A stretch of 59,813 nt of DNA from a virus (taxonomy: Duplodnaviria; Caudoviricetes), in the IMG/VR virus record IMGVR_UViG_3300025113_000005, positions 1 to 59,813 of that record; one strand, given 5' to 3'. A program made the position numbers and the translations under genes. The notes under the pieces were generated by a model, which saw nothing but the letters and a program-made list of their open reading frames with translations, did not search any database and had not been told where the DNA came from. Shown in pieces: positions 10,377-59,603 of this stretch (positions are counted from its first letter, which is position 1; each line of letters begins with the position of its first letter).

Positions 10377-10388
10377 GAGGTATTTACT

Positions 10389-44689: not shown

Positions 44690-45438
44690 CTATAGAGCTG
44701 GGTAGATCATGTTGAGCCAGATGTTGGTGATGCGCTTCACCATGCGTTTCTCGTACGAGGCGGCAGCGTGCTCAGGTGTAAACCGTCGCAGCTTCTTGCC
44801 ATCGGGACCCCACTTACCAAGGACCTCGCTTTCGACCTCACAGACGACCTGCTGTTTGAGGTTCTTGGAGTAGTACGACTTGTACTCGCGGTACCCGAGG
44901 TAGGTGCCGAGGTAGGTGTTGATGCCACCGCTGTAGCCCTTGGTCACGACCACCACCTTCTGACCGGGCTGGATGACCTGGTTGAAGTTGTTGGTGAAGG
45001 GCTCCGCGAGGTAGGGCTTCACTTGACCTCTCCCAGGGTCACGGTCACGGGCACCGCCTCCCAGCGCTCGCGCCAGTCGTGCTTGATGGCGCGCTTGTTC
45101 TTGCGACCTACCACCGAGTTGGCGGAACCACGGGTGTACAGCTTCGGCACCGCGTAGGCACCGTAGCCCGATTCGTAGGCGTGCGATCCCACTGCGCGGA
45201 TCACAAAGAGCGGCTGGTCAAAGGTGCTCATTCACTTCTCCACGATTCGAAGGGTGATGCCCTGCTCGGTCAGCTCAAGCTGGCCAAAGTGCTCATTGGC
45301 ACGAAGATGGCCGACCCCAGCCGCCCGTAGCACCTCAGCGAGCTTTGACCACGATACCGAGGAGGACATCCCGCTGCCAGTTACGTCAGACGTCCCGACC
45401 ACCTCGTGGTGGCGGTCCAGCTGGATAACTGGCTTCAT
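44690..45438 (-). CDS. three small hypothetical genes (44690-45022, 45019-45231, 45232-45438)
   Basis: tightly coupled ORFs. Confidence 0.5.
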
Positions 45439-46496
45439 GCCGACTTTCCTTCGGTGAACGCCTTTCCGACGCCGGGCCAGTAGAGGAGCGTCGTGCCGGC
45501 GACCACCTTGCGGTTGACGCTGGTCGACTGGATGAAGACGTTCCACTCGCCGAGGTCGGCAGGAGCGACGCGGCAGTCACCGTACTGCGGCAGCCCGGCC
45601 ATCTGGCGAGCAGCGGGACCGGCGTAGACCGCGCCGGTCTGCTTGTTCTGCACAGCGATCAGCTTGTAGTCCTGGACCTTCGGCTCGGTCTTGGTGAGCT
45701 GGTAGAACGCGGCGCCCTTCAGCATCTTGCCGCCGATGCGACCTTCCACGAAGTCACGGATCTGCACGTCGTGGTCCTTCTGGGCGACCGGCAGCAGCTG
45801 GACCTCGGCGCCGATGTCCTTGCAGACCAGCTTGACGTCCTCGAGCTTGACGTCGGCCATGTTCGCGTAGAACTTGGTCGTGCTCTTGACGCCGCGCGAG
45901 CGGTCGGTCATGTAGGCAGTGAAGGCCTGGGTCGTCGCCTGGCTGGCGGCCTCAACACCGCGCTGCGACTGGTCCCATTCGAGGATGTTGCCCTCGGGGA
46001 TGCCGTGGCGGGCCAGGGTGCGTGCATCGCCGCGCGGCACGCGGAAGACGAAGGTCCAGCGGTCGGTGTTCTGCAGGCGCTTGATCTCGGCAACGAGAGA
46101 GGAGGCGGTCCAGCGGCGGCTGGAGTTCTCCTGGCCGTCGGTCGTGACCATCACGAGGAAAGCGACGTCTGGGTCATCGAAGTCGGGGAGGGCCTTGAAG
46201 TCGTCGATGACGGCGCCAACGGCGTCCCAGAGCGGGGTGCCGCGGCCGCGAGCCGAGTACTGGCTTTCGACGATGGGCTGGAGGGCGTTGACGGAGGAGT
46301 TGCGGACAACGTGGCGCACCTGGTCGGTGCCTTCGTAGCCGAGCTCGACTACTGAGACGACGGTGTCCTGTCCGGTGGCGTGGGACGCCTCACGAACGGA
46401 GGCGATGGTGGCGTTGTAGTCGCGGGCGGCGTGACGAGCGATGCTGCTCATGGAGCCGGAGTGGTCGCGGGCGAAGCCGATGTAGCTCTTGGTCAT
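45435..46496 (-). CDS. vWA-domain protein
   Basis: MIDAS motif DHSGSM, GTPLWDA, TDGQEN. Confidence 0.8.
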   Translation of the reverse strand: MTKSYIGFARDHSGSMSSIARHAARDYNATIASVREASHATGQDTVVSVVELGYEGTDQVRHVVRNSSVNALQPIVESQYSARGRGTPLWDAVGAVIDDFKALPDFDDPDVAFLVMVTTDGQENSSRRWTASSLVAEIKRLQNTDRWTFVFRVPRGDARTLARHGIPEGNILEWDQSQRGVEAASQATTQAFTAYMTDRSRGVKSTTKFYANMADVKLEDVKLVCKDIGAEVQLLPVAQKDHDVQIRDFVEGRIGGKMLKGAAFYQLTKTEPKVQDYKLIAVQNKQTGAVYAGPAARQMAGLPQYGDCRVAPADLGEWNVFIQSTSVNRKVVAGTTLLYWPGVGKAFTEGKSA

Positions 46497-46629
46497 TTGT
46501 AAACCTTTCAAAGTTGGGTCAAACTGAAACGAGTGGAAAACTGCCGGCTACCTTGCCGACTGGGTATTTATACTGGCTGGGCCATAATATCACGGATCGC
46601 TGAGGTTGTACACCTTCAACCTGCATGTC

Positions 46630-47073: not shown

Positions 47074-47871
47074 TCACCTGATGGAACAGGTGCGCGCCTT
47101 CAGGCTGGCCGCCGAGGCTGTCAAGGGCCAGACCTGCTCAGCGAGGGTGGCTCCCGACGGTACCGGCAGAGTGTACCCGGCGCGGCGCTGCACCTCATAG
47201 AGGCTCGTGCGGAAGGCCTCAGGAGGCGCCTGTGAGGCCTGGTGCGGGTAGATGAAGGCCACTACCTCCTTTGTCTGGGTGTCAACCAGGACCTTCCAGA
47301 AGGCGGTGGGCACGGCCACTTGGTTACGACCGATGGTCGTGGCCCCCTTGGTGGGGGAGATGGTCCCGACGTAGATGAGAAGCGGGCTAGAGCGACCAAC
47401 GGCCCAGGAGCGGGTGCGGTTCTCAAGCGCCTTCCACGCGCCGCGGTTCAGCCCGCGCAGCTGTGGAGCGGCGTTGCTCAGCACGTTGACGTCGATCGAC
47501 GCCTGGGCTGACCAGCGAAAGTCGGCGCTGCTGGCGAGGTGTCCTATCTCATGACCGCTCTTAGAGTAGTCCTTGAGCTCCGCGCGGCCACCGCGCTTAA
47601 GAGCAGGGTCAGGCACGAAGCCGGTGTCGCGTGAGGCGCAGCCAACGGCCCGCTCGGGGGTCAGAACGTAGGCGACCCACAGGGCCGTCTTGCCGACGTT
47701 GTCGTGCTCAAGCGCGTAGCCTGGTCGGCAGATCAGCGTCGTGTTTGAACGCGCGCTCTTCGGTTGCCCAAAGGGCAGGTGCTGAGCGCACTGCTCTATC
47801 GGAAGAGGTGGGCTAGGCGCCGCTGTAGCAAGCAGCGGAAGCAGCGCTAGAAACGTGGTTAGCAGCTTCAA
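47074..47871 (-). CDS. secreted DNA/RNA non-specific endonuclease (NucA/EndoG family)
   Basis: EIGHL (DRGH-like), SNAAPQ..LNRGAWKALE, VPTAFWK; signal peptide. Confidence 0.88.
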   Translation of the reverse strand: MKLLTTFLALLPLLATAAPSPPLPIEQCAQHLPFGQPKSARSNTTLICRPGYALEHDNVGKTALWVAYVLTPERAVGCASRDTGFVPDPALKRGGRAELKDYSKSGHEIGHLASSADFRWSAQASIDVNVLSNAAPQLRGLNRGAWKALENRTRSWAVGRSSPLLIYVGTISPTKGATTIGRNQVAVPTAFWKVLVDTQTKEVVAFIYPHQASQAPPEAFRTSLYEVQRRAGYTLPVPSGATLAEQVWPLTASAASLKARTCSIR

Positions 47872-48593
47872 CGCAGCTTGTGCTTGTGCTTGTCGATGAG
47901 GTCGATCAGCCATTCCTCAGGCTGTCCACCATTCGTCACGTCCTTGGGCAGGCTGACTACGTAGACTTCTGAGCCTTCGCCCTGAGCCATGGCTCTCATC
48001 TTCATCATGTTGCCCATTTGATGGGCATGGGCGTCGTATGGGTCAACCTTGACCAGGTTCTCAATCTCAAGCGACTTGCGGAAGTTGCCCGACCCCTCAG
48101 GCGTCTCCTTGAAGGAGGGTCGGGCAATGAAGATGAAGCGGTCGTTCTCGTCGTCGAAGTCCTCGTCGTCCTTGGTGCGCGCCGCCTTCTTGAGGGCCAG
48201 CTGCAGCTTGATCGCGGTCTCACGGTTGACGTGCGTCTTCAGGGTGTTCAGCGGAACCTTGTCGAGCAGCTGGTGAAGGGCAGCTGGACCAAGCTCAAGA
48301 GCTCCTTCAGCCATGGCTCCGAGCATGACGCCGGCCTGCTGGTGCAGCGTGCCGTCCCAGTTTCCTCGGTTGTCAGGATGAGCAGCGGCCTTCAGGATGG
48401 AGGGCAGGAAGCTGAACAGCTTCGTGGGGTCGAATGCCGCGTGTTTATGGATGCTCTTGTCGAGGATGTCGCCGAGCATCTCCTCGTTGCCGCCGAGCTT
48501 CTGCAGCAGCTTTACCATGCCGCCGGCAGTGTCAGACTGCCAGAACTTGGTTAGGCGGTTAGGAGCTGATTCGCGAAGTTGATGAAGTAGCAT
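47868..48593 (-). CDS. hypothetical late protein
   Basis: MLLHQLRES; TAAATA at 48598-48603. Confidence 0.65.
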   Translation of the reverse strand: MLLHQLRESAPNRLTKFWQSDTAGGMVKLLQKLGGNEEMLGDILDKSIHKHAAFDPTKLFSFLPSILKAAAHPDNRGNWDGTLHQQAGVMLGAMAEGALELGPAALHQLLDKVPLNTLKTHVNRETAIKLQLALKKAARTKDDEDFDDENDRFIFIARPSFKETPEGSGNFRKSLEIENLVKVDPYDAHAHQMGNMMKMRAMAQGEGSEVYVVSLPKDVTNGGQPEEWLIDLIDKHKHKLR

Positions 48594-48631
48594 CTCGTAT
48601 TTATGCTCTAACAACCTGGGACACTGCCACT

Positions 48632-48771
48632 GAAGCCACGAACAAGGACTGCGATCGGCCGTTAGACCGAGGATTCGAACCTCCCCTCCTGATCTTCCGA
48701 TCAGGCGTGCAACCAATACACCTGGCCCCCGAATGGTGGAGGATAACCAATCAGCTTCGGTTCACGACTTC
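48632..48771 (-). ncRNA. Y RNA-like ncRNA enclosing a tRNA-like domain
   Basis: GTCGTGAAC-CGAA-GCTGATTGG-TTATC ... D arm, long stem, GGTTCGAATCC ... CCGATCGC-AGTCCTT-GTTCGTGGC. Confidence 0.6.
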
Positions 48772-48925
48772 TCCAAGGAGCCAGGCTGGCGACAGCTCTC
48801 GCTGCAGGCTTGGCGTCACACTAAGCACCCTACCTTTTCAGGGGTATCATGCAGCTTTGAACGCTGACCTTAAGGTTCGCGAACCGTTGGTCAGTCAGAT
48901 CAGGGCGCCGGCCCCTTGGAGAAGC
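48768..48925 (-). ncRNA. unknown structured ncRNA
   Basis: terminal CTTCTCCAAGGGGCC/GGCTCCTTGGAGAAG helix enclosing several hairpins. Confidence 0.55.
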
Positions 48926-48928
48926 GGT

Positions 48929-48996
48929 GAGGACAGCAAAGGAGGCGCAAGACGGAGTTCAGAATGATTGATAACCGTCTTGCTACGGCTGTCGTC
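48929..48996 (-). ncRNA. short Y RNA-like ncRNA
   Basis: GACAGC-CGTA-GCAAGACGG-TTATC..CCGTCTTGC-GCCTCCTTT-GCTGTC; TAAATA at 49001-49006. Confidence 0.6.
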
Positions 48997-49003
48997 GTTC
49001 TAT

Positions 49004-49273
49004 TTATTTCAGAGCTACGGCCTCCTCAGCCAGTACCTCAGAACGGTCAGCGGCCGCAAACAGATCGCTTGCAAACCCTGGACACTTCTTTGAGATTGAG
49101 TAGGCGTACGCTCGTACATCCGCGACGGACATGCTGTCCTCGGGTCGTACAGGGTCATCGCGAACAATTGACACAGCGGCATCACCGATAGCACGAAGCT
49201 TGTCAGCGAGCCAAACGAAGGCGCTGGCGGCCCAAGCGGCCCCACGCGGGATCTTTAGTTCCTCGTAGTCCAT
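49004..49273 (-). CDS. hypothetical protein
   Basis: AGGA RBS. Confidence 0.5.
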   Translation of the reverse strand: MDYEELKIPRGAAWAASAFVWLADKLRAIGDAAVSIVRDDPVRPEDSMSVADVRAYAYSISKKCPGFASDLFAAADRSEVLAEEAVALK

Positions 49274-49275
49274 GA

Positions 49276-49539
49276 TCAGTCCTTCTTGAGGACGAAGGCA
49301 TAGAGCTCTCCGGCTTTCTTGGTGACCTCATCGATCGTGTAGGCCTTCGGTACCAGGCGCTGCCATTCCTCGAGGGTGGCCTTGTTCGACGCGACAAGGG
49401 CGTCGAACGCGCGGGCGGCGAAGTCCTGCTGGGTGTGGTAGAGGGTCTCGAGGTGCTCCTTGGCCATCTGAAGCAGCTCAAGGCGGATCTCGTAGGGGGT
49501 CTTGCCCGAATAGGGCTTGATAGGTTGGGGGTGTGCCAT
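49276..49539 (-). CDS. conserved-type phage hypothetical protein
   Basis: TPYEIRLELLQMAK; GGAGG RBS; TAAATA at 49591-49596. Confidence 0.7.
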   Translation of the reverse strand: MAHPQPIKPYSGKTPYEIRLELLQMAKEHLETLYHTQQDFAARAFDALVASNKATLEEWQRLVPKAYTIDEVTKKAGELYAFVLKKD

Positions 49540-49593
49540 GTTGGCCTCCTGTGTGTGTTTCGGTGATCAAGGCTCACCGTGTGCCTGAAGTAT

Positions 49594-50028
49594 TTATGTC
49601 CCGACCAGGACAACCACGAACGTGTCACGGTCCAGCTGGTTATCAGCCCACATTCGGGACAGCAGCGCGTAGAATTTGTTCTGTGTTTCAGTTAGAAGAT
49701 CAAGGCCTTCATCTACGAGGGCCAGCGTGATTGGTGTCTTCACGATGACGCTCTGGATAAGCCGATTGTCGAGCGCTGTCAGCTCGATAACCTCTAGCGC
49801 GTGTATGCGCTCAATTTGTCGAGCTAGCGGCGAGGTAGGAGCAAAGAAGATCGCGGGCTCAGAGCGCGCGAGGGCTACAAGTGCGGTGGTCTTGCCAAGC
49901 TGCCGTGGTATCCCGAGACGCACTGTACGAAACTCACGAATGAAGGTGCCAGGGTCCATCACCGACGGTGCGGTGTCGGGACGGCGTGCCAGCTTAATGA
50001 GCTGCTTCAGCAGGATGTCAACGACCAT
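49594..50028 (-). CDS. small P-loop NTPase-like protein
   Basis: PRQLGKTT and LVDE; AAAGGA RBS. Confidence 0.6.
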   Translation of the reverse strand: MVVDILLKQLIKLARRPDTAPSVMDPGTFIREFRTVRLGIPRQLGKTTALVALARSEPAIFFAPTSPLARQIERIHALEVIELTALDNRLIQSVIVKTPITLALVDEGLDLLTETQNKFYALLSRMWADNQLDRDTFVVVLVGT

Positions 50029-50038
50029 GGGTGTCCTT

Positions 50039-50130
50039 TGGTGGTAGCGGTGGGATTCGAACCCACGGGCCCCTTTCGGGACCTTCACCTTTCCAGGGTG
50101 AAACGATAAGCCGGACTCTGACACGCTACC
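50039..50130 (-). tRNA. tRNA-Ser(GGA)
   Basis: cloverleaf, loop CTGGAAA, long variable arm, CCA. Confidence 0.9.
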
Positions 50131-50181
50131 AATGGTTCATTCTAACACGCTGGATGGGCAGCGCGTCAGTGAAAGAAGATT

Positions 50182-50531
50182 CAAGGCCCCGTAGCCGGGT
50201 TTCTGTTCTATCCCATCATCCATCTACGGCCGAAGCCGTCCTCGCCAGGTTTCAACCTGGGTCATAGGTGCCACAACCCGTTCTCTCGGCGAGCAGCGTC
50301 AACGAGAACTGTTTGTGTTGCTGCGGAATCGTTGTCGTACGAGCGAGAAGGCCGGGTGATAGGACCGGTCGTCGTATTCAGCTGGACGGTGGGTCTTGCG
50401 ACCTGGTCAGGCTACCGTGTCAGCCTATTCACCCCTTGCGGGCTTCTCTCCGACAGAGCGATGAGCCCTGCTCTGTGCAGTCCCGAACTTCCTCGAACCG
50501 AACTAGGTTCGTACCACACGGACGGGCTTCA
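50182..50531 (-). ncRNA. rnpB: RNase P RNA
   Basis: GAGGAAGTTCGGGACTGCACAG near 5' end; AGATGGATGAT and ACAGAAACCCGGCTAC near 3' end; P4 (with bulged U) and P1 can pair; about 350 nt. Confidence 0.82.
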
Positions 50532-50613
50532 GCGACTTGTGGTCTCTGCCCGAGGCTCAGTACGATTATCGTTGACACCTAGCCGGCCCGCGATGGGTCG
50601 GACCTTGAATTCG

Positions 50614-50790
50614 TTAGATGTTGAGGTACGACATCAAACCAAACGCCTTGAGCAGCCACACTATGACAGCGATGACTACCACGATGTTCAGGATGTTCTT
50701 GATCTTGGCGTCCATCGGGATGTACGCGTTGACAGCCCAAAGAATGACGCCGACCACAACGAGCGTGATGATGAGGGAAATGAGGGACAT
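50614..50790 (-). CDS. 58-aa two-TM membrane protein (not in ORF track)
   Basis: MSLISLIITLVVVGVILWAVNAYIPMDAKIKNILNIVVVIAVIVWLLKAFGL; AGGAG RBS. Confidence 0.75.
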   Translation of the reverse strand: MSLISLIITLVVVGVILWAVNAYIPMDAKIKNILNIVVVIAVIVWLLKAFGLMSYLNI

Positions 50791-50834
50791 GGTGTTCTCC
50801 TGTTAGGTTGATACCCGGTCGATGTTCGACCAAA

Positions 50835-50920
50835 GGAGGAGGTAATGGGTTGGAACCCATGGACCCGTCTTTCAACAGGTCTCCGGCTTAGCAAACCGGC
50901 ACCAACAGCCTCTCTTGCTT
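50835..50920 (-). pseudogene. degenerate tRNA-Ser(GCT)
   Basis: anticodon arm CCGGT-TTGCTAA-GCCGG plus variable and T arms; acceptor stem does not pair. Confidence 0.55.
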
Positions 50921-50931
50921 TTCTATTTAGC

Positions 50932-51008
50932 TGGTACCCCCGGAAGGATTCGGACCTTCAACCACTCCCTTTTGAGAAGAGCCGCACTGCCAATTAGCGT
51001 ACGGGGGC
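50932..51008 (-). tRNA. tRNA-Leu(CAA), short variable loop
   Basis: loop CTCAAAA; CCA. Confidence 0.85.
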
Positions 51009-51017
51009 CTAGATTTG

Positions 51018-51107
51018 TGGAGGAAGGTAAGGGAATCGAACTCTCCCCGATTCATCACCGAGGGCCCAGCTTTCGAAACTGGTTACGCGCCATGCGTGCT
51101 ACCTTCC
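51018..51107 (-). tRNA. tRNA-Ser(CGA), probable 8/4 fold
   Basis: GGAAGGTA/TACCTTCC 8-bp acceptor; loop TTCGAAA. Confidence 0.8.
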
Positions 51108-51237
51108 AGAATTCTTGAGCTGCTCCACCCTTCCTAGGGGCTTTGCTACGGTGGCTCACACCGGTCCATTGATTACAGTGTGGATAGGACTGAACCAGCA
51201 CAGGGGTTCTTCACTGAGCCCTGCCCTCCGACTTGCT

Positions 51238-51687
51238 TTAACGAGATAAGCTGCTCGAGGATCGTAGTTCGTTGCGCACCTGCATTAAGATCTTGCCGAG
51301 GTGGTTGTCGCCAACTCCGTTGCAGACTCCCCAGTAGATGTCGTTCCACGAGTTTGTTTCTTCTAGGTAGAGGTCCTTAGTTTCAAGGAGCCACTGCCTG
51401 AGTGGATCAGCCGCGAACTTCTGTCGGGTGAGGTCCAGCATGACCTCAAACTTGCGTCCTTCATGCCAGCCGGGTGGAGCTTGCAGCTCGTGAGAGAGCC
51501 TCTTGGCCTCTCGACCGGTCTTGAGGCTGGCAAAGAGGCGTCGAATGCTGAGGTCATCGGTCTTCGCGGCCTGGTAGGCGGCCTCAGTTGTGTGGTACTT
51601 GAGACCATCTAGCACCACCTCAACAAGGTGGAAGTTACTGAGGAAGCGAAAGGGGCCAAAGAACCCGTAGATGCCGGGCGGCTTCAC
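51238..51687 (-). CDS. NADAR (YbiA-like) family protein
   Basis: FLSNF, EAAYQAAK, KF, L.E..WND.YWG..G.NHLGKILM.VR. Confidence 0.9.
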   Translation of the reverse strand: MKPPGIYGFFGPFRFLSNFHLVEVVLDGLKYHTTEAAYQAAKTDDLSIRRLFASLKTGREAKRLSHELQAPPGWHEGRKFEVMLDLTRQKFAADPLRQWLLETKDLYLEETNSWNDIYWGVCNGVGDNHLGKILMQVRNELRSSSSLSR

Positions 51688-51875
51688 GGGCAGGAAGCAC
51701 CGTAGCGAAGGGCGTTGAGCACCTGCTGCGGTGTCTGTTGAATCTTGAGAAGCTCCTCCTCAGTCAGCGTCGGAACCTCAGCTGGTTTCACGGGTGCGAC
51801 GATCCTTTTCTGGAGAATCGTTGAGATCTCGCTGTAGCGAAGAGGTTCGCGGGCAGTGGTGGAGTTGTTGCGCAT
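51684..51875 (-). CDS. small hypothetical protein
   Basis: overlaps the NADAR start. Confidence 0.45.
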   Translation of the reverse strand: MRNNSTTAREPLRYSEISTILQKRIVAPVKPAEVPTLTEEELLKIQQTPQQVLNALRYGASCP

Positions 51876-51891
51876 GGCACTCTTTCAAAGG

Positions 51892-51967
51892 TGGCTCCCC
51901 AGGCTGGGCTCGAACCAACGACCTACGGATTAACAGTCCGACGCTCTACCGACTGAGCTACTGGGGA
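51892..51967 (-). tRNA. tRNA-Asn(GTT)
   Basis: canonical cloverleaf, CCA. Confidence 0.92.
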
Positions 51968-51972
51968 AGGGA

Positions 51973-52194
51973 TCAGGTACGGGCTTCAATTACATCGGTA
52001 AGGACCTTCAGCCACTGAGTGGCGTGCATGTCGATCAGGTAGCTAAGCTCCTCAACGTCATCGCCGGTCCGCTCATGGGCCAGGGTACGCAGCATTGAGC
52101 GTACCAGCTCTGGCTTCGGGTGGGCGTAGACCATCGCCTTCACGACCATGTGAAGGACAGCGTACTGTGCTGCGAAGTCTTTCTGGTTATCCAT
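51973..52194 (-). CDS. small hypothetical protein
   Basis: ORF fills the gap between two tRNAs. Confidence 0.5.
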   Translation of the reverse strand: MDNQKDFAAQYAVLHMVVKAMVYAHPKPELVRSMLRTLAHERTGDDVEELSYLIDMHATQWLKVLTDVIEART

Positions 52195-52197
52195 ATG

Positions 52198-52282
52198 TGG
52201 TGCGCCCGGTCGGATTCGAACCGACACGCCTTTCGGCACTGGCTTCTAAGGCCAGCGTGACTGCCAATTCCACCACGGGCGC
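52198..52282 (-). tRNA. tRNA-Leu(TAG)
   Basis: loop CTTAGAA (A37); long variable arm. Confidence 0.9.
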
Positions 52283-52287
52283 GTTGT

Positions 52288-52923
52288 CTATTGTACCTGT
52301 GTCACACATCTCAGGTTGGACCTGCCGATGTCATTGACGTTTCCTAACCAGTTGATGTTCACGTTCACGTTGTCAGTTCGAAACCCAGGATTGCCGATGA
52401 ACGGCACATCCACTGTTCCCATCCATTTGATGGCGCCGTTCACTCTGACCACCAGCAGAGGGTCGTCGTATGTTGCTTCGAACCAGTAGCGCGCGCCGTT
52501 TACCAGCGGCGCGACAGTTCGTGAGAGCGTGGGGGTCTGCTTGATGTAGCCTTTTGCACCGCACTGCTTGCTGGTCATCAGCAGCGGGTTGCTCTTGACG
52601 CTGACGCCGAGTTCACCACCGACCGAGGGCCACATGATGTACATCGCGTTGCAGTCATCTCGAACGTGAAGGCGAAGACCGAGCTGTCGAAGAATGGCTC
52701 CTGAGGCGGCTGGCACCTCACCTGAGTTTCCTTGAAAGGTGAAGATCACCCCAGCGTAGTCACCTCGTTCGTCCTGCCACACCAGACGCGTGATAGGATC
52801 ATTGATCTTGATGAGGGGGTACTCTGAAATTGGCGAGCCTGATGTAACACAGGCAGCGGTTGCAGCAGCTCCACCTAGCGCTGTTGCCAGCGCAGCTAGA
52901 ACCTTCTTGATACGAAGCTTCAT
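52288..52923 (-). CDS. secreted beta-rich hypothetical protein
   Basis: MKLRIKKVLAALATALGG signal. Confidence 0.6.
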   Translation of the reverse strand: MKLRIKKVLAALATALGGAAATAACVTSGSPISEYPLIKINDPITRLVWQDERGDYAGVIFTFQGNSGEVPAASGAILRQLGLRLHVRDDCNAMYIMWPSVGGELGVSVKSNPLLMTSKQCGAKGYIKQTPTLSRTVAPLVNGARYWFEATYDDPLLVVRVNGAIKWMGTVDVPFIGNPGFRTDNVNVNINWLGNVNDIGRSNLRCVTQVQ

Positions 52924-52949
52924 TTTGTCTAACGTTTGTTGTACCTGGC

Positions 52950-53089
52950 ACTTTCCACAGAGGCCGACAAGGGGCGGCGTCGGGCATTTGCCCACCTTAG
53001 CCATAAGGGCTGGACGAATCGAACGTCCTCGGTTCAGTTTCAAAGGTTGAAGATAACCAACATCCAGTCGGTCAGCTTCTGTGGAAAGT
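52950..53089 (-). ncRNA. Y RNA (YrlA)-like ncRNA
   Basis: CTTTCCACAGA/TCTGTGGAAAG outer helix, AC-CGAC, GGTTATC, T arm GGACG-TTCGATT-CGTCC. Confidence 0.65.
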
Positions 53090-53146
53090 ATCAGAGATCA
53101 TTGTAACATCGAGTAGCGACGCAGTCGTTACTTTAGTGAGGTTGGA

Positions 53147-53222
53147 TGGGTGTCTTCGGCGGGTGCTGGACTCCGCATCCCACCCCTACAATGGAGTGAC
53201 TCTACCCTTAAGCTACGAAGAC
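53147..53222 (-). pseudogene. degenerate tRNA-like gene, anticodon ambiguous
   Basis: GTCTTCG/CGAAGAC acceptor and D arm present; aberrant anticodon and T loops. Confidence 0.5.
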
Positions 53223-53232
53223 CATCGAAACT

Positions 53233-53317
53233 TGGAGCTGGTGGCAGGATTCGAACCTGCGTGGGGTTGCCCCGGCTGCTTACAAAACAGCTGCAATCGC
53301 CGCTATGCGACACCAGC
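53233..53317 (-). tRNA. tRNA-Thr(TGT) with long variable arm
   Basis: loop TTTGTAA; GGGG-CAA-CCCC variable stem. Confidence 0.85.
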
Positions 53318-53322
53318 ATGGT

Positions 53323-53397
53323 TGGCCCCCGCTGTCGGATTCGAACCGACGACCCGACGTTTTAGAGGCATCCGCTCTACCACTGAGCTAAGCAGGG
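53323..53397 (-). tRNA. amber suppressor tRNA(CTA)
   Basis: canonical D and T arms; loop CTCTAAA; G73-CCA. Confidence 0.8.
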
Positions 53398-53405
53398 AAA
53401 TTCAA

Positions 53406-53477
53406 TGGAGCCCCCGGCAGGACTCGAACCTGCAGTAGGTCGCTTAGAAGGCGTCCGTCCGCTCCTTCGGCGGGGGC
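53406..53477 (-). tRNA. tRNA-Arg(TCT), aberrant D arm
   Basis: loop CTTCTAA; good acceptor and T arms. Confidence 0.7.
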
Positions 53478-53482
53478 GTGTT

Positions 53483-53559
53483 TGGTAGGCCGGGTGGGAC
53501 TCGAACCCACTGTCGACGGCTTATGAGGCCGCTGCCTATACCTGTTATGCTTCCGGCCC
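53483..53559 (-). tRNA. tRNA(CAT), likely Ile2
   Basis: loop CTCATAA; GGGCC acceptor; A73. Confidence 0.8.
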
Positions 53560-53565
53560 GGGATG

Positions 53566-53654
53566 TAGGACCGCAGGGATTCGAACCCTGATCGTGCGCT
53601 AATCTGGCGCTCATGGCTTATAAGGCCACCGCTCTACCGTTGAGCTACAGTCCC
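53566..53654 (-). tRNA. tRNA-Ile(TAT) with long variable arm, no encoded CCA
   Basis: loop CTTATAA; GCGC..GCGC variable stem. Confidence 0.8.
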
Positions 53655-53683
53655 GTGGACTGAGCTCGATATTCGAGATGTAT

Positions 53684-54343
53684 TCATGTCAGTTTCCTTC
53701 CTAGTTTCCACCCATTTTCAAAATAGGTGGTCATTTGTTGTATCAAAACGGGTTTGGATACAATTCCGTTTGTCATCCATCTTTTCCCGTTCATTGAATT
53801 TTTGACGCCTTGCTGATGGCCAATCCTAGCAAATGTGTTCTTTCGTCTGGCAATGCTGTCAACTGAACGGGCGGTTGCAACACCCAATTTTCTACCGCAG
53901 TCCAGATTGCGCTTGGTTGCTTGCAGGGCTACTGATGGGTTCAACCACTGTCGCTTCCGCATTGCAGACAGGTTGTCACGCATTTTTTCAAGTGCTGCAG
54001 CCTGTCCTTTACGATGAAAGTCATTGACCTTGTTTTTCTCTGCTAGAAAACCTCCGCCATCACCGCCGTATTTCAGGTTGATGTTGAGCGGATCAGCAAG
54101 CAACTGTTCATTGACTATCTCTGTTTCACGGAGCTTCAACGCTTCACGTGTCGGCAGCAACTCAAGTATCTCGCGTTTGTGGTTCTCATCACCATGCTTT
54201 CGGCGCGAGTAACCAAGAATCTTTCCACTCCCGAGATAACCGTCATCAAGGTCATCAGTTGAATGCATTCCTACGTAGAACTTGCCGGTCACTAGACAGG
54301 TAGTTCGGTAGATGTAGTGGTAAAGCTTCTGTCGTCTTGGCAT
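53684..54343 (-). mobile_element. GIY-YIG (Seg-like) homing endonuclease
   Basis: YIYRTT..FYVGMHST..DDGYLGSG..E..N; visibly AT-richer than flanks. Confidence 0.85.
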
Positions 54344-54391
54344 ACTGTTCTCTTCTGTCTATTTACAGGCTTCAGGAACAATACAACCTCA

Positions 54392-54469
54392 TGTTGCGGA
54401 ACCGAGGAATCGCACCTCGCTTCATCGTGGCTTATGAGACCTCGCCCGACAACTAGCCGGCCGCCCGCG
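54392..54469 (-). tRNA. degenerate initiator-like tRNA(CAT)
   Basis: C1/A72 mismatch; loop CTCATAA; imperfect stems. Confidence 0.55.
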
Positions 54470-54484
54470 TCTGTTACGTATTTA

Positions 54485-54569
54485 TGGTGCCCGAGGTGGG
54501 ACTCGAACCCACACTCCCGAAGGAAGGAGGGTTTAAGCCTCCTGCGACTACCTCTTCCGCCACCCGGGC
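54485..54569 (-). tRNA. tRNA-Leu(TAA)
   Basis: loop CTTAAAC; long variable arm. Confidence 0.9.
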
Positions 54570-54576
54570 AGGGTGT

Positions 54577-54651
<75 letters not shown>

Positions 54652-54655
54652 GTGA

Positions 54656-54889
54656 TTACTTCACGAAGTGCGGTTGCCCGTTCTTCGCCTTCCACTTCAG
54701 GTGAAGCCAGCCCTTTGGAATGTAGTGGCTGACGCCCTCCGCGTCGAACAGACGGTGACCGCCTGTGCTTATGGATAGCTGAAGTGGGCCGTCGATCTTC
54801 ACCTCGTCTCCACCTGGAAACCGGTAGACCCGGAATTCCTCACTGGAGATATCGATGAACTTGTTGGTTGAGTCATTTACAAACTGCAT
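54656..54889 (-). CDS. small hypothetical protein
   Basis: MQFVNDSTNKF..; AGGGG RBS. Confidence 0.65.
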   Translation of the reverse strand: MQFVNDSTNKFIDISSEEFRVYRFPGGDEVKIDGPLQLSISTGGHRLFDAEGVSHYIPKGWLHLKWKAKNGQPHFVK

Positions 54890-54970
54890 GGGATTTTCCC
54901 CTACATCGTTGTGCCCACATTGCCTCTTGCTGGAGGACCGGGGCTCGCGGCAAGATTGCCAGCGAAATTT

Positions 54971-55045
54971 TGGTGGAGGCCGGGGGAGTTGGACCCCTCT
55001 AGTCATGATCGCTGCCAGCGATCACCGCAGCCCGCTGCTGCCCCC
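54971..55045 (-). tRNA. non-canonical tRNA-Ala(GGC)-like RNA
   Basis: G3:U70 and A73-CCA; loop CTGGCAG; minimal D loop; T loop TCCAACT. Confidence 0.6.
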
Positions 55046-55051
55046 ATGTCT

Positions 55052-55127
55052 TGGTGGAAGTGATGGGACTCGAACCCACTACCTCAACAATGCCATTGTT
55101 GCGCTCTCCCAGCTGAGCTACACCCCC
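55052..55127 (-). tRNA. tRNA-Ala(GGC)
   Basis: canonical, G3:U70. Confidence 0.92.
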
Positions 55128-55132
55128 ATGAA

Positions 55133-55207
55133 TGGTCAGGGTACCTGGAGTTGAACCAGGACTGCTAGTCTCCCGAACTAACCGGCTGCCACACGCCTCC
55201 TACCCTG
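55133..55207 (-). tRNA. non-canonical tRNA-Pro(GGG)
   Basis: loop TCGGGAG (C33, A37); no U8. Confidence 0.75.
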
Positions 55208-55308
55208 TTGTGTTCTTAGACCGTCACGGCTTTCAGGTCCATCGCTTCCTTCATCACCCTGCAGTTTGGGTGCCGTCCGTACGACTTGCGGTCGTAGAAG
55301 CTAACGTT

Positions 55309-55393
55309 TGGTGCGCATGGTCGGAGTCGAACCGACACGCCTTTCGGCACTGAGCTCTCGACCCAGCAAGACTACCAATTCCATCACACGCGC
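55309..55393 (-). tRNA. tRNA-Leu(GAG), C33/A37 variant
   Basis: loop TCGAGAG. Confidence 0.85.
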
Positions 55394-55398
55394 AAAGC

Positions 55399-55483
55399 TG
55401 GTGCGGATAGTCGGAGTCGAACCGACACGCCTCGCGGCGCCGCCTTCTGAAGACGGTGGGTCTACCAATTCCCCCATACCCGC
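55399..55483 (-). tRNA. tRNA-Leu(CAG)
   Basis: loop TTCAGAA (A37). Confidence 0.9.
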
Positions 55484-55495
55484 ATGAAAACTAAG

Positions 55496-55579
55496 TCGAT
55501 CGGCTGGGATTCGAACCCGACGCAACGGCATCAGCTGCGCCATAACCAAACCCAGGTGCCCTAGGGACTGGCCGATCGA
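55496..55579 (-). ncRNA. tRNA-like ncRNA without a clear anticodon arm
   Basis: TCGATCGGC/GCCGATCGA helix, GGGTTCGAATCCC, long hairpin. Confidence 0.5.
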
Positions 55580-55588
55580 AGAAAATCA

Positions 55589-55730
55589 AAGCAACAAAGG
55601 AGCGACAACGGAGATGCCTTGCGGCTATACCAGTGCGTTTACCATTCCGCCACAACTAGGTTTCCCCAGAAGGTAGGACTCGAACCTACAGCGTGCCGGT
55701 TCCATGATAACCATCATCTATCGGTTGCTT
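55589..55730 (-). ncRNA. Y RNA (YrlA)-like ncRNA with permuted tRNA module
   Basis: AAGCAAC-CGA..GGTTATC; T arm, closed acceptor-like stem, D arm (GAATGGTAAA); CTCCTTT-GTTGCTT. Confidence 0.75.
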
Positions 55731-55736
55731 GTGTCT

Positions 55737-55815
55737 TGGTAGCGGGGGCAGGATTCGCACCTGCGATCTCCGGCTTATGAGGCCGGCGGGAACGACTGGG
55801 CTTCCCTACCCCGCA
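55737..55815 (-). tRNA. initiator-like tRNA-Met(CAT)
   Basis: 1:72 mismatch; loop CTCATAA; CCA. Confidence 0.8.
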
Positions 55816-55820
55816 TCAGA

Positions 55821-56045
55821 TTATTTGAAGAGGTCGAGCAGCTCAGCTGGTATCGTGTCCAGCTCAGCTACATCGCAGCCTTGTTTCAGATCGAAAGCGG
55901 ACTCCTGTAGGGAGCCTCTGCGCTCATGGCGAACTTCCTTCGCAGCACCGGTAAACGGGTGGTAGTCACTCGTTGGCGCGGAGTCGAAGCTGGTATCTAC
56001 CCAATCTCGAACGCTGGCTCGATCACCAGCAGCGCGTGCGTTCAT
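55821..56045 (-). CDS. small hypothetical protein
   Basis: AAGGAG RBS. Confidence 0.5.
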   Translation of the reverse strand: MNARAAGDRASVRDWVDTSFDSAPTSDYHPFTGAAKEVRHERRGSLQESAFDLKQGCDVAELDTIPAELLDLFK

Positions 56046-56258
56046 CAGGATCTCCTTACTACTTCAAAAAGGCAGTGCGGCAGGCTACAGTGATTGCTTC
56101 GCCATCTAGATCCCCGAAGAGAATTGAAGGGGTTAGGAGAGCAGGCTCTCCATAAGACGTGCTTCCGCCGCCTCCTATAGGTAACCAGCGGTCAACTTGA
56201 CCACTATTCAATTCTACTTCATTTTGAGCTGTTTGTACACCGTTAGTTGCAGGTTACA

Positions 56259-56834
56259 CTAGCGAACTATCGTTGCCCACCCTGAGATGATGTACTTTTC
56301 TTGGGTAGAAGATGGAACTCCGCGGTGGGTAAACATCCAGTCTGCACCCCAGATAAGCGTAAGCCCCTTCTCAGGTTGTATCTTTAGGTTCTGATGGAAG
56401 AACTCGGTCTGTCCGCCATCAGTTACATCGTTAAGGTAGGTCATGAACACCAGCAGCCGCCCGATGTTTCCGCTTCGAACTGACGTTCGCTCAGTGTGCC
56501 AGGCGTAGTAGCCATCAGTTGGGCGGTATTTCGAGACCTTCATCGGTTCGACTATTCCCCAGGTGCTGAACTTGGCGCAGTAGGGGTACTTCTGCTTGTA
56601 GAGCTCGAAGCACTGAAGAAGAGTGGGGGTGTAGGCCATGAAGGCCTCTGACCTAGGGTCAAGAGTGGTGTCAACGCTCTTCTTCACCTGTTCATTCACG
56701 ACGCCGTTAGCGATGTAACCAGGGTAGGTGGCTGCCTTAGAGTGGTACTCGATGATGTGATCGCACACGCTGAGATCGTCCATATACCAGCCAGCAACGA
56801 AGTTGTCTAGCTGATTGATGTCGTGTTCGCGCAT
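56259..56834 (-). CDS. 2OG-Fe(II) oxygenase (prolyl-hydroxylase-like)
   Basis: WHTE, FMTYLNDV..GG.TEF, THRG, KYIISGW; GGAGG RBS. Confidence 0.88.
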   Translation of the reverse strand: MREHDINQLDNFVAGWYMDDLSVCDHIIEYHSKAATYPGYIANGVVNEQVKKSVDTTLDPRSEAFMAYTPTLLQCFELYKQKYPYCAKFSTWGIVEPMKVSKYRPTDGYYAWHTERTSVRSGNIGRLLVFMTYLNDVTDGGQTEFFHQNLKIQPEKGLTLIWGADWMFTHRGVPSSTQEKYIISGWATIVR

Positions 56835-56850
56835 GCAACCTCCTGTAATT

Positions 56851-56936
56851 TGGAGCGGGAGAAGGGAATCGAACCCTCATGCGACTTGCGTCTGCCGGTT
56901 TGGAAGACCGGTGCCCTGCCAATGGACCACTCCCGC
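56851..56936 (-). tRNA. tRNA-Gly(TCC) with long variable arm
   Basis: loop CTTCCAA; GAC-GCAA-GTC variable stem; U73. Confidence 0.85.
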
Positions 56937-57089
56937 GAGGTCCCGGAGTATCTTCACCTTCACGGAGGACCGGGCTCCACGTGAGGCTAAGATCCTCCCT
57001 GACTTCCATGCCGTCATCGTGCAACGTGAGGATCAGACGCTGCACGCACTTCGGCGACATGGAAGCGTGAAGCTTGCGCCTCACTGAAC

Positions 57090-57163
57090 TGGAGCGGAAG
57101 ACCGGAATCGAACCGGCGCATGAACCTTGGCAAGGTCCTAGGCTACCATTACATCACATCCGC
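57090..57163 (-). tRNA. tRNA-Gly(GCC)
   Basis: loop TTGCCAA. Confidence 0.9.
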
Positions 57164-57171
57164 ATGAAACT

Positions 57172-57245
57172 TGGAGCGGGTACCCAGTATCGAACTGGGG
57201 ACTAAACCTTGGCAAGGTTTCGAGTTACCACTACACCATACCCGC
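57172..57245 (-). tRNA. tRNA-Gly(GCC), second copy
   Basis: loop TTGCCAA. Confidence 0.9.
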
Positions 57246-57828
57246 GTATAAACCTTCTCACCTGTGTATGTGAGACATTCCACAACTGAGACAATCTCTT
57301 TGTGCTTCCTCTTTTCGGATAGTCTGAGTGAATTACATCAAGCTGTCGCTTTTCGACTTCTTCGGTCGACAGCGTCATTGCACTGTTGGCACTGATTTTT
57401 GATTTTGCTTCATTGGTATGCTTGAAAGATTTTCCTAGTGTACCACCTAACGGTGGCTTCCAGATTCCGAGCAATGCTCTGCGTTTCATTTCGATGGAGT
57501 GAGCTTCTCGCTTTTCGTTATTCCACCTAGCTCCCGATTTGTTGATGTAATCCCAACCACCTTCTCCACCTACTTTCAAATTGTAGGTGTCTGGTCTAGC
57601 TACCCAATCCATGGTTACTAACTGTGATTCAGCGAAGAACATATCTTCAATTGAAGCACAATCTAGCAAAATGATTCGTTGAAAGTTGCTAGCGCCATAC
57701 TTAGCAATTGCCTTCTTGAGAAGCTTGCCACTTCCTAGATATCCATCATCGAGTGTTTCACACACGTGAACACCACGGTATTTCTTACCGTTGATGAGGT
57801 TGGCAGTTTCATAGACAATGAATTTCAT
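57202..57828 (-). mobile_element. GIY-YIG (Seg-like) homing endonuclease
   Basis: IVYETANLINGKKYRGVH..DDGYLGSG..YNLKVGG; AT-rich. Confidence 0.85.
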
Positions 57829-57848
57829 TTATTCATTGTAACACAAGT

Positions 57849-57934
57849 TGGTCTCGGTGGCAGGATTCGAACCTGCGATGCGTTTCCGCGCTAGCTCCCA
57901 AAGCTAGTGACATACCTGGCTTGCCGACACCGAG
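57849..57934 (-). tRNA. tRNA-Pro(TGG) with long variable arm
   Basis: loop TTTGGGA (G37); GCG-GAAA-CGC variable stem. Confidence 0.85.
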
Positions 57935-57940
57935 GAATTG

Positions 57941-58052
57941 GGCAAACGAAAATGAAGAAGGAGTGCCTCCCGAACGAGGCTGACCTTGGGTTTCCCCTCG
58001 GTCTGGAGTCGAACCAGATCATCGTATGATAACCTTCTGTCAGCGGTTTGCT
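57941..58052 (-). ncRNA. Y RNA (YrlA)-like ncRNA with permuted tRNA module
   Basis: GCAAAC-CGC-TGACAGAAGG-TTATC; TCTGG-TTCGACT-CCAGA; GGG-GAAA-CCC; GCCTC/GAGGC; CCTTCTTCA-TTTTC-GTTTGC. Confidence 0.78.
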
Positions 58053-58057
58053 GTTCT

Positions 58058-58132
58058 TGGTCAGGGTACCTGGAGTTGAACCAGGACTGAAGCCTTCCAA
58101 AGGCAACTGGCTACCACACGCCTCCCACCCTG
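58058..58132 (-). tRNA. non-canonical tRNA-Pro(TGG)
   Basis: loop TTTGGAA (A37); paralog of 55133-55207. Confidence 0.75.
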
Positions 58133-58139
58133 TAGATCG

Positions 58140-58214
58140 TGGTCAGGGTACTCAGAGTCGAACTGAGACTACTCGGCTCCGGACCGAATCGGCTGCCACA
58201 CGCCTCCTACCCTG
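58140..58214 (-). tRNA. non-canonical tRNA-Pro(CGG)
   Basis: loop TCCGGAG (C33, A37). Confidence 0.75.
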
Positions 58215-58224
58215 TTGAATGAAA

Positions 58225-58278
58225 GAGAACGAAGGTCGTCAAGGGGTTTTTTCCAGATAACCCTTAACAGCGGTTCTC
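58225..58278 (-). ncRNA. minimal Y RNA-like ncRNA
   Basis: GAGAAC-CGC-TGTTAAGGG-TTATC..CCCTTGAC-GACCTTC-GTTCTC. Confidence 0.6.
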
Positions 58279-58326
58279 GTATTTGGAGCCGGCACATGGA
58301 TTCACATGTGGTTCGCCCGGCGTAGA

Positions 58327-58707
58327 TTATGTTGTGCGATGGAAGATGACCAGCATCATCACCGCTGCCGAAAGAAGAAGAGCGGCGCCGATCAGCAGTC
58401 CTGGAACCAGGACTAGAGGCCAGGCTTTACCGCTGAGCATGAAGAATAGACACACCGTGAAGAACACGGTTCCAACTCGATGCGTTCCGAGCTGAGCTCG
58501 AGCGAGCATTGTTGGCGGTCCATCGGGGACCCACAGCCGAAACACGGAGGCGTAGAGCAGCGAGAGCACCATTCCAACGAGGTTGATGTGGGCGTGCACT
58601 CCACCGTATGCGTGGTTTCCCGTGATACCCATGTAGATTCCGAGGCACATACCGATGAGGAGCAGGACAAGCCCGAAGTAGGTATGACGCCTGGCGATAT
58701 CTCTCAT
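58327..58707 (-). CDS. 4-TM membrane protein with HAHINL motif
   Basis: GIYMG..HAHINLVG, resembling heme-copper-oxidase-subunit-like small proteins. Confidence 0.65.
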   Translation of the reverse strand: MRDIARRHTYFGLVLLLIGMCLGIYMGITGNHAYGGVHAHINLVGMVLSLLYASVFRLWVPDGPPTMLARAQLGTHRVGTVFFTVCLFFMLSGKAWPLVLVPGLLIGAALLLSAAVMMLVIFHRTT

Positions 58708-58736
58708 GTTGTTCTCCAACGCTGTTGGAGTATTTA

Positions 58737-58821
58737 TGGTGCACCCGAGAGGACTCGAACCTCCACCCCTTGCGGGACAGCCACCTCAAAGCTGCGCGGC
58801 TACCAATTACGCCACGGGTGC
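58737..58821 (-). tRNA. tRNA-Leu(GAG), canonical G37
   Basis: loop TTGAGGT. Confidence 0.92.
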
Positions 58822-58895
58822 AGAAACTCTCGAGGACGGTTGCAGCGTCCTCTTCCCAGCGCCGGCTGATTGCAACTACCGTCGCTGGAGTACCT

Positions 58896-58971
58896 TGGTG
58901 GACCTGAGGGGGATCGAACCCCTGGCCTCAGCGTTGCGAACGCTGCGCTCTCCCAGCTGAGCTACAAGCCC
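58896..58971 (-). tRNA. tRNA-Ala(CGC)
   Basis: canonical, G3:U70. Confidence 0.92.
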
Positions 58972-58979
58972 AAGAAACC

Positions 58980-59071
58980 TGGCGGTGATGGTGGGATTCG
59001 AACCCACGGACCCCCTTTCGAGGATCTCCGGTTTAGCAAACCGGTGCGATAGGCCTCTCTGCCACATCACC
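58980..59071 (-). tRNA. tRNA-Ser(GCT)
   Basis: loop TTGCTAA; long variable arm; G73. Confidence 0.92.
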
Positions 59072-59078
59072 TTGTGTC

Positions 59079-59168
59079 TGGCGGCGTCGGTAGGATTCGA
59101 ACCCACGGGCCCCTTGCGGAACCTTCTGCTTTCAAGGCAGCTGCCATAGACCACTCGACCACGACGCC
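59079..59168 (-). tRNA. tRNA-Ser(TGA)
   Basis: loop CTTGAAA; long variable arm; G73. Confidence 0.92.
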
Positions 59169-59210
59169 ATATTCTAGAGGACGGTGGGTTGTCAAGCCCA
59201 ACATGTTTCA

Positions 59211-59381
59211 ATCACAGTGCGTTGTTATGCGATAAGACTCAACGTGCTAGCTAGGCTCGTATCAGCGTCAGAGGGCGTCTAACCCATGGACTCGTTCGTG
59301 TGACCGTTTTGTCCATCCAACTGCCTCCTTCGTTCGCTGCAATCAACACAACGAGATCGGCATGCACTACACTCCTGTGAC
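59211..59381 (-). ncRNA. candidate rod-shaped ncRNA
   Basis: nested short helices in an ORF-free gap. Confidence 0.35.
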
Positions 59382-59603
59382 CTAATCAGCCTGAGCTATT
59401 GCCTGCCCAGCACCTTTTCCCCCACGACGAGGGCCTTATCAGTCACGTCCTCAAAAACTTGTTCGGCCGAGGCTTGCACTCGGATCACCGTCTTCACGGC
59501 TTCGGCTGGGGTCCATCGAGCAGCGGCGTGGCGCACCTCGAGTTCCATACCGTTCAGGAGCGACCACACGCAGAGCCACGATGCCGGGTGGAAGCTGAAG
59601 GAC

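Follow-up and report, generated by a model that had tools for sequence, protein, structure and literature searches.

A putative RNase P RNA gene of type A descent in the tRNA region of an uncultured large phage

The stretch of DNA discussed here, hereafter the window, comprises all 59,813 bases of an IMG/VR virus record. It lacks end repeats, has an estimated completeness of 26% and carries 29 tRNA genes as called by ARAGORN, all on the minus strand from 50039 to 59678, 23 of which pass the Rfam tRNA threshold. On the same strand, between the first of these genes and the other 28, lies an RNA that resembles the RNA subunit of RNase P and is the subject of this article. The window also encodes an RNA ligase (2215-3342, minus strand; phrog_24030, E 4e-128) whose N-terminal segment is HNH-like, a CCA-adding tRNA nucleotidyltransferase (30409-31506, minus strand), a NADAR protein and a non-specific nuclease; the ligase, the CCA-adding enzyme, the tRNAs and the RNase P RNA would together amount to a toolkit for tRNA repair and maturation. 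There are PHROG-family proteins in the window with best relatives in Caulobacter phage Cr30, which is also the best isolate relative for one window protein (53% identity). The features of the locus are as follows, where A3 denotes the alignment of 31 related RNAs described further below.

50614-50790, minus strand: small, hydrophobic ORF of 58 aa with no Pfam match; its stop codon (50616-50614) is separated from P1 by 3 nt
50179-50610, minus strand: whole RNase P-like RNA, 432 nt, bounded by P1 as the best terminal helix; Rfam covers 50178-50539 only
50600-50610, minus strand: P1 5' strand (AUUCAAGGUCC), pairing with 50179-50189 (11 of 11); 10 of 11 pairs compensatory in A3
50592-50597, minus strand: P2 5' strand (CCCAUC), pairing with GAUGGG at 50212-50217 (6 of 6)
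50494-50590, minus strand: expanded P3, with basal helices 50590-50577/50508-50494 (14 of 14 pairs) and a structured insertion at 50576-50509
50482-50494, minus strand: J3/4 and P4 5' strand (GAGGAAGUUCGGG) with bulged U50487; columns invariant in 31 of 31 relatives
50477-50480, minus strand: P5 5' strand (CUGC), pairing with GCAG at 50321-50324 (4 of 4); invariant in A3
50470-50473, minus strand: 5' strand of the P6 pseudoknot (GAGC, in J5/7), pairing with GCUC at 50291-50294 in the P17 loop
50325-50468, minus strand: remodelled specificity domain, closed by P7 (50468-50466/50327-50325)
50462-50459/50331-50328, 50455-50451/50337-50333 and 50448-50443/50350-50345, minus strand: three rod helices, covarying
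50442-50433, 50426-50409 and 50403-50392, minus strand: distal hairpins of the specificity domain
50390-50387/50367-50364, minus strand: distal helix of the specificity domain, covarying with the relative L051 (by eye)
50272-50320, minus strand: J5/15 (CAA) through the P15-P17 arm, with P15 at 50317-50315/50274-50272
50309-50304/50285-50280 and 50301-50296/50290-50287, minus strand: P16 and P17
50279-50275, minus strand: internal loop carrying GGGUU, the GGU loop; invariant in A3
50245-50260, minus strand: extra hairpin A (CCAGG-UUGAAA-CCUGG) with a conserved loop, in a stretch that Rfam leaves unaligned; 4 of 4 pairs covary
50226-50239, minus strand: P18-like hairpin (ACGGC-UUCG-GCCGU), of variable length in the family; 4 of 5 pairs covary
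50192-50225, minus strand: J18/2 (AGAUGGAUG), P2 3' strand, J2/4 (ACAGAA) and P4 3' strand (CCCGGCU)
50039-50130, minus strand: tRNA-Ser(GGA), starting 48 nt past the 3' end of the RNA, the first downstream gene of the co-oriented tRNA region
50932-59678, minus strand: the other 28 tRNA genes, all on this same strand

Searched at its gathering threshold, Rfam returns 23 matches in the window, every one of them tRNA and none from an RNase P family; the default threshold yields nothing at this locus because the model of bacterial type A RNase P RNA (RF00010) scores 36.5 bits here, short of its gathering score of 100. In the covariance-model check that the initial annotation had called for, the score stays under the cut-off, which I count against the RNase P reading; the match is more than chance would give (E 1.2e-9 in a 1-kb search, 1.8e-11 in a search of the whole record) and the alignment runs from end to end, covering model positions 1-367 of 367 at 50539-50178 on the minus strand. 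The alignment retains the P15-P17 arm as well as the blocks conserved at the 5' and 3' sides, and it passes over the specificity domain through local ends, in agreement with the earlier impression that the middle of the molecule looks atypical. The low score follows from the true 5' strands of P1 and P2 lying upstream of the match, with the model forcing both helices onto wrong segments, from a conserved insertion in P3 and from a rod-shaped specificity domain that does not align. Within the RNase P clan RF00010 gives the best match here, with three weaker overlapping matches from the same clan. The arm formed by P15, P16 and P17, together with the P6 pseudoknot between the P17 loop and J5/7, is what separates type A from type B, and the presence of P6, P16 and P17 in this RNA counts against type B (RF00011).

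The conserved blocks that had been pointed out by eye are indeed in place on the minus strand (GAGGAAGUUCGGG at 50494-50482, ACAGAAACCCGGCUA at 50206-50192 and AGAUGGAUGAU at 50225-50215), and P4 forms as had been proposed, its strands pairing as AG/CU and UCGGG/CCCGG to give seven pairs around the bulged U50487. The deviation noticed in its 5' strand is also real, since GAAGUUC stands where the Rfam consensus has GAAAGUC; this variant makes a U-G pair in place of the consensus C-G, which I count against the RNase P reading. The extent of the RNA had to be revised. The initial annotation had let the two ends of 50182-50531 pair as P1 in a molecule of about 350 nt, but those termini form just a weak CAAG/CUUG; the relatives L051, L085 and L020 revealed the true 5' strands of P1 and P2 some 70 nt upstream of the Rfam match, and with P1 formed by 50610-50600 and 50189-50179 the RNA is 432 nt long. 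A first reading of P1, P2 and P3 within 50182-50531 (CCCGUC/GAUGGG and CGAACC/GGUUCG) was dropped once these upstream strands were seen. P1, P2 and P3 are all present in the revised layout, P2 crosses P4 as a pseudoknot, and all helices of the hand-drawn structure are fully paired in the window, with the sole exception of an A50481/A50200 mismatch adjoining P4, which I likewise count against the reading. There is good support for regarding the RNA as a homologue of RNase P RNA that lies on a phage contig.

Whether this structure has been under selection can be judged from A3, a MAFFT alignment of 31 related RNAs, all from the group I defined below, trimmed from P1 to P1, to which a manual structure with P4 and P6 as pseudoknots was applied. 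Across its 80 pairs, 97.3% of 2354 cells are paired, as against 83.5% in shuffled alignments and 34-45% when partners are slid by 1-3 columns; compensatory changes affect 48 of the 80 pairs (shuffle mean 30.1, slid 8-20) and the covariation score is 0.375 (shuffled 0.139, slid 0.035-0.076). None of 500 shuffles attains the observed value on any of five measures, a control that overstates significance because the sequences are kin, and the slid control, which is fairer, is equally clear. Compensatory pairs are spread over P1 (10 of 11), P2 (5 of 7), P3 (3 of 5), P15 (2 of 3), P16/P17 (6 of 10, with 99.7% of cells paired), hairpin A (4 of 4), the P18-like hairpin (4 of 5) and the three rod helices of the specificity domain (2 of 4, 1 of 5 and 3 of 5), and the P6 pseudoknot, which is specific to type A, has 100% of its cells paired and shows covariation in all 4 of its pairs. 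MAFFT splits the 3' strand of P2 in the subgroup to which the window belongs, and a separate count there gave 11 of 11 sequences complementary with seven distinct helix sequences. The P3 insertion is common to the window, L020 and L085, which share 79-83% overall identity, and RNAalifold on these three draws 33 pairs in it, 26 of them kept in all and 13 compensatory. P4 and P5 are invariant and therefore uninformative on covariation either way, apart from the innermost pair of P4: seven of the eight P4 pairs do not change in 31 sequences, and the innermost is GC in 24, AU in one and unpaired in six, the window included. The strands of P4, J3/4, J18/2, J2/4, J5/15 and the GGU loop likewise vary little or not at all across the 31 relatives. 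Two other foldings were set aside: RNAalifold on an earlier alignment (A1) paired the 5' strand of P4 with the 3' region of P5/P7, an error that arises because pseudoknots cannot be drawn by RNAalifold and that the manual structure replaced, and a hairpin drawn by eye (ACAGAGC/GCUCUGU) would exclude both P6 (100% paired) and the rod helix Sb (98.1% paired), each of which covaries.

The specificity domain of this RNA departs from the type A model. It has no P8 or P9 hairpins, and a P7-P10 junction with P11-P14 was not found in it; in their place, a P7 of 2-3 bp is followed by a stack of three helices, whose internal loops are conserved, and by a variable tip. In the window this tip consists of the fourth helix listed above and of three hairpins, which may be the counterparts of P12-P14; GCAA loops close two of these hairpins. 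Shuffled sequences fold as stably as the domain does at minimum free energy (z = -0.03), and the lack of a recognisable P8/P9 in a domain that stays unaligned to the model is again counted against the RNase P reading.

The relatives that make these comparisons possible were sought with a scan for 19 bases from the P4/P5 5' block of the window, run through viral, metagenome and genome collections. In the viral collection it matched 17 contigs, of which 16 hold complete units and the 17th (L021) an interrupted one; in the metagenome collection it matched 60 contigs (40 complete units, 10 cut by the contig end and 10 without a detected 3' strand); and in the genome collection it matched 16, close to the roughly 17 expected by chance (an estimate from 2 x 596e9 positions / 4^18), with three complete units, that is with a 3' P4 strand, which lie in MAG bins. 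The exact two-block pattern with both P4 strands of the window was found in no viral contig. After deduplication there are 47 distinct units on viral, metagenome and MAG contigs, 32 of which, the window included, form group I, and the remaining 15 either look like classical type A RNAs or are minis whose cores measure 188-203 nt. Twenty-one members were scored against RF00010, the window among them, and with the same P4 variant throughout they form a continuum from 183.5 bits down to the 36.5 bits of the window RNA, the lowest of all. Eight exceed the Rfam cut-off (L061 183.5, L060 173.9, L033 170.2, L017 165.2, L080 164.8, L064 163.9, L084 151.5 and L068 106.1 bits), and among those below it are L063 (85.5), L018 (66.7), L027 (65.5), L014 (63.3), L015 (63.1), L028 (59.1), L025 (53.6), L023 (48.7) and L022 (42.7). 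The classical phage members retain P7, P8, P9 and P12, and for that reason group I looks like a derived form.

Several members deserve mention for their own sake. On L022 (205-681, minus strand), and likewise on L026, L053 and L100, a group-I copy ends inside the 3' strand of P16, and directly after the truncated copy comes a complete mini unit, some 200 nt long, that has a P1, a P2 and a P4 to itself (on L022 at 211-412, 42.7 bits), an arrangement that looks like gene replacement or nested insertion. L021 (about 9400-10650, minus strand) carries a mini-type 5' fragment from P1 to P5, then an ORF of 298 aa (9603-10499) with two LAGLIDADG-like motifs, and then a stretch with a different P4-like strand pair in which Rfam finds nothing; this may be a homing endonuclease inserted in an RNase P RNA gene. 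Among the minis, L015, L019, L024 and L097 have a core of 188 nt and L063 one of 203 nt; the specificity domains of L015 (63.1 bits) and L063 (85.5 bits) measure just 44 and 74 nt, and L015 appears by eye to be without the P16/P17 arm. Such minis could be RNase P RNAs of the bacterial type at a very small size.

Relatives of the window RNA sit on T4-like jumbo-phage contigs, among them G006, a T4-like genome of 350,089 bp with terminal repeats and 100% completeness that encodes the Gp23 capsid protein (E 6.6e-98) and carries a group-I unit, and G004 (183 kb), which encodes the T4-type major capsid protein Gp23 (E 6.6e-97). The latter was met by way of a relative of the window protein at 45435-46511, which led to nine viral loci; five of these records were searched and one unit was found, that of G004, with a full-length RF00010 match of 59.1 bits. 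Presence in one of five related viral records, all five of them incomplete, is counted against the reading as a phage gene. Among deposited genomes, the five phage genomes nearest by one protein all lack the RNA, and blastn of the window RNA and of the group-I RNA of L078 against 50,697 deposited phage records gives no match. A blastn match obtained with the L017 RNA was discarded, as it covers merely a bacterial flank (coaD, fdx, tRNA-Met) beside a prophage integrase on an 'Acinetobacter phage' contig. The earlier remark that such an RNA is uncommon in viruses needs a qualification, for in uncultured phage contigs the family is sizeable. The initial claim that a phage contig encodes an RNase P RNA fares well, given the type A catalytic domain, the compensatory changes over 31 relatives, the tRNA array and the T4-like kin. 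As to the immediate surroundings, a promoter and terminator scan of 49800-51300 found no promoters, with models that exclude phage types, and two terminator-like sites where 1.2 are expected. On L011 an ORF with a start similar to that of the small ORF beside the window RNA (MSLINLILN...) lies just downstream of the RNA, and on L085 another ORF ends just upstream.

The family is linked to tRNA genes. A tRNA lies within 1 kb of 27 of the 47 distinct units, 32 of the 47 loci hold tRNAs, and all 322 tRNAs in these loci are on the same strand as the RNase P-like RNA. For eight of the 31 group-I units a tRNA gene begins 2-9 nt beyond P1, so that cutting its 5' end would release the 3' end of the RNA. 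In the window 27 of the 29 tRNAs encode CCA and 15 have U at -1, features that fit the GGU loop and the J5/15 sequence CAA, both of which are kept: the GGU in the P15/P16 internal loop pairs with the 3' RCCA of the substrate, as stated in PMC11143913, and that paper and PMC6582537 treat the roles of the GGU/RCCA pairing and of the '248 position'. The initial annotation had spoken of many non-canonical tRNAs, which is borne out in part, in that four are unusually long and six of the 29 ARAGORN calls miss the Rfam tRNA threshold. The four, Thr(UGU) at 53233-53317, Ile(UAU) at 53565-53654, Gly(UCC) at 56851-56936 and Pro(UGG) at 57849-57934, all on the minus strand, measure 85-90 nt, as if they carried long variable arms. 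A further tRNA at 53323-53397 (minus strand) has the anticodon CUA and an encoded CCA, is labelled 'Pyl' by ARAGORN and is of the amber-suppressor type, and TAG could thus be read through or recoded by the phage. Other RNAs also share this neighbourhood: on L023 a GOLLD RNA (4882-5334, minus strand; 203.1 bits, cut-off 150) and the RNase P RNA (7183-7543) lie about 2 kb apart, and the contigs L084 and L031, which bear RNase P-like RNAs and dense tRNA arrays, hold a tmRNA (L084:5847-6196, minus strand, 94.8 bits) and a permuted tmRNA (L031:1996-2307, minus strand, 62.9 bits), respectively.

The comparisons above show that the RNA is homologous to RNase P RNA, shares its architecture, has had its structure kept by selection, and belongs with phage DNA and tRNA genes. 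I consider it likely that the window carries a phage gene for an RNase P RNA subunit of type A descent, selected in large T4-like phages; its expression, catalysis, partner and benefit I infer. The RNA would be transcribed together with the co-oriented tRNA array and would fold into a type A catalytic domain, its GGU loop would pair with the genome-encoded 3' CCA of phage pre-tRNAs, and their 5' leaders would be cut off. It would most likely work with the RnpA protein of the host, since no phage rnpA is detectable: Ribonuclease_P (PF00825) has no match in the window and none above cut-off in five relatives, including the complete 350-kb G006, where the sole match is an 11.6-bit stretch broken by stop codons, and Pfam on nine ORFs from 47074 to 53043 and on the CCA-adding enzyme gives nothing RnpA-like. 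The absence of PF00825 from both the window and a complete relative is consistent with the borrowing of host RnpA that had been suggested at the outset, and as the window represents only about 26% of the genome, a phage rnpA could lie elsewhere in this phage.

Other explanations can be set against this reading. It seems very remote that the record is cellular DNA misfiled as viral and that the RNA is the cell's own rnpB, or that the resemblance is fortuitous. No capsid gene was found in the window and three complete units fall within MAG bins, yet in the MAGs G010 and G011 the cellular rnpB (277.6 and 253.4 bits) sits on other contigs than the phage-type units (170.2 and 62.7 bits), and one bin (G012) is archaeal; the 29 one-strand tRNAs, the RNA ligase fused to an HNH segment and the PHROG proteins closest to Caulobacter phage Cr30 also speak for a phage, as do the T4-type capsid genes and terminal repeats of relatives, and chance is excluded by E-values of 1e-9 to 1e-11 together with the covariation. 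It is also quite improbable that the window copy is the decaying relic of a phage gene that was once functional, for which one could cite its place at the bottom of the score range, the P3 insertion, the A/A mismatch in P4 and the truncated or interrupted copies elsewhere in the family (L022, L021). Every helix is intact in the window, however, all invariant core positions are retained, and the insertion recurs in L020 and L085 with its pairs largely kept and many of them compensatory.

In a further alternative the RNA is a look-alike that has ceased to cleave tRNA precursors and acts as a sponge or competitor of host RnpA or pre-tRNAs and so redirects or stops tRNA maturation in the host. The rebuilt specificity domain, the extra P3 insertion and a P4 5' strand that departs from the Rfam consensus would suit such a role, and with no phage rnpA found, any protein bound would be the host's. 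I nevertheless hold it to be unlikely, as the parts conserved most strictly across the 31 relatives are precisely the catalytic ones (both P4 strands, J3/4, J18/2, J2/4, J5/15 and the GGU loop), acting as nothing more than a protein sponge would call for neither a P6 pseudoknot nor a GGU loop, and close kin with the same P4 variant reach 183.5 bits as ordinary type A RNAs. Returning to the reading as a phage-encoded RNase P RNA subunit, one may go further and ask, tentatively and with doubt prevailing, whether group I is a new, phage-specific type of RNase P RNA in which the rod and, in the window, the P3 insertion bring a different substrate preference or a phage-encoded partner. If so, the phage could mature its own tRNAs, including the odd ones with long arms, without relying on the host enzyme, for instance once the host is shut off or under host defences that target tRNAs.

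RNase P is a textbook ribozyme, and an RNA subunit encoded by a virus would lengthen the list of functions connected with translation that large phages contribute themselves. Within the family a natural series runs from canonical type A RNAs through forms with a rod domain to cores of about 190 nt, all with one shared P4 variant, and on this series it can be tested directly what purpose P3 and the specificity domain serve and what minimum size still allows an RNase P RNA of the bacterial type to work. Default Rfam thresholds miss such genes in viral contigs. Searches of openly available full texts turned up no report of a phage-encoded RNase P RNA, though an earlier notice may exist, and term look-ups in papers on jumbo and huge phages, on tRNA arrays and on mycobacterial ncRNAs, and in a 2024 review of RNase P, gave none; a phage family of RNase P RNAs with a rebuilt substrate-binding half therefore appears, on present sequence evidence, to be previously undescribed.

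One of the closest known systems is RF00010, the bacterial RNase P RNA of type A exemplified by M1 RNA from E. coli, with which the window RNA shares the order and pairing of P1-P5 and P15-P18, the P2/P4 pseudoknot, the P6 pseudoknot with P16/P17, the junction sequences and the GGU loop. It differs in being phage-encoded, in its score of 36.5 bits, in a P4 5' strand that reads GAAGUUC rather than GAAAGUC, in an extra hairpin between P15 and P18, in a P3 expanded by about 85 nt and in a specificity domain that is a rod without P8 or P9. Naturally reduced RNase P RNAs, which include organellar ones and archaeal forms without most of the specificity domain, resemble the family in keeping the catalytic domain alongside a specificity domain that is reduced or rebuilt, and the minis of the family have cores of 188-203 nt; lineage and setting differ, and the window RNA is enlarged overall, at 432 nt. 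GOLLD RNA and phage tmRNA occupy the same tRNA-array neighbourhood but are unrelated to the RNase P-like RNA in sequence and fold, GOLLD RNA having been linked to phage-derived tRNA clusters in PMC6582537. A last comparison is with phage T4, whose tRNA precursors are described in PMC11143913 as among the founding substrates of RNase P, cut by the host enzyme. Like the phage lineage of the window, T4 has clustered tRNA genes, with multimeric precursors that require 5' trimming, but T4 depends wholly on host RNase P, whereas the lineage described here would supply an RNA subunit of its own.
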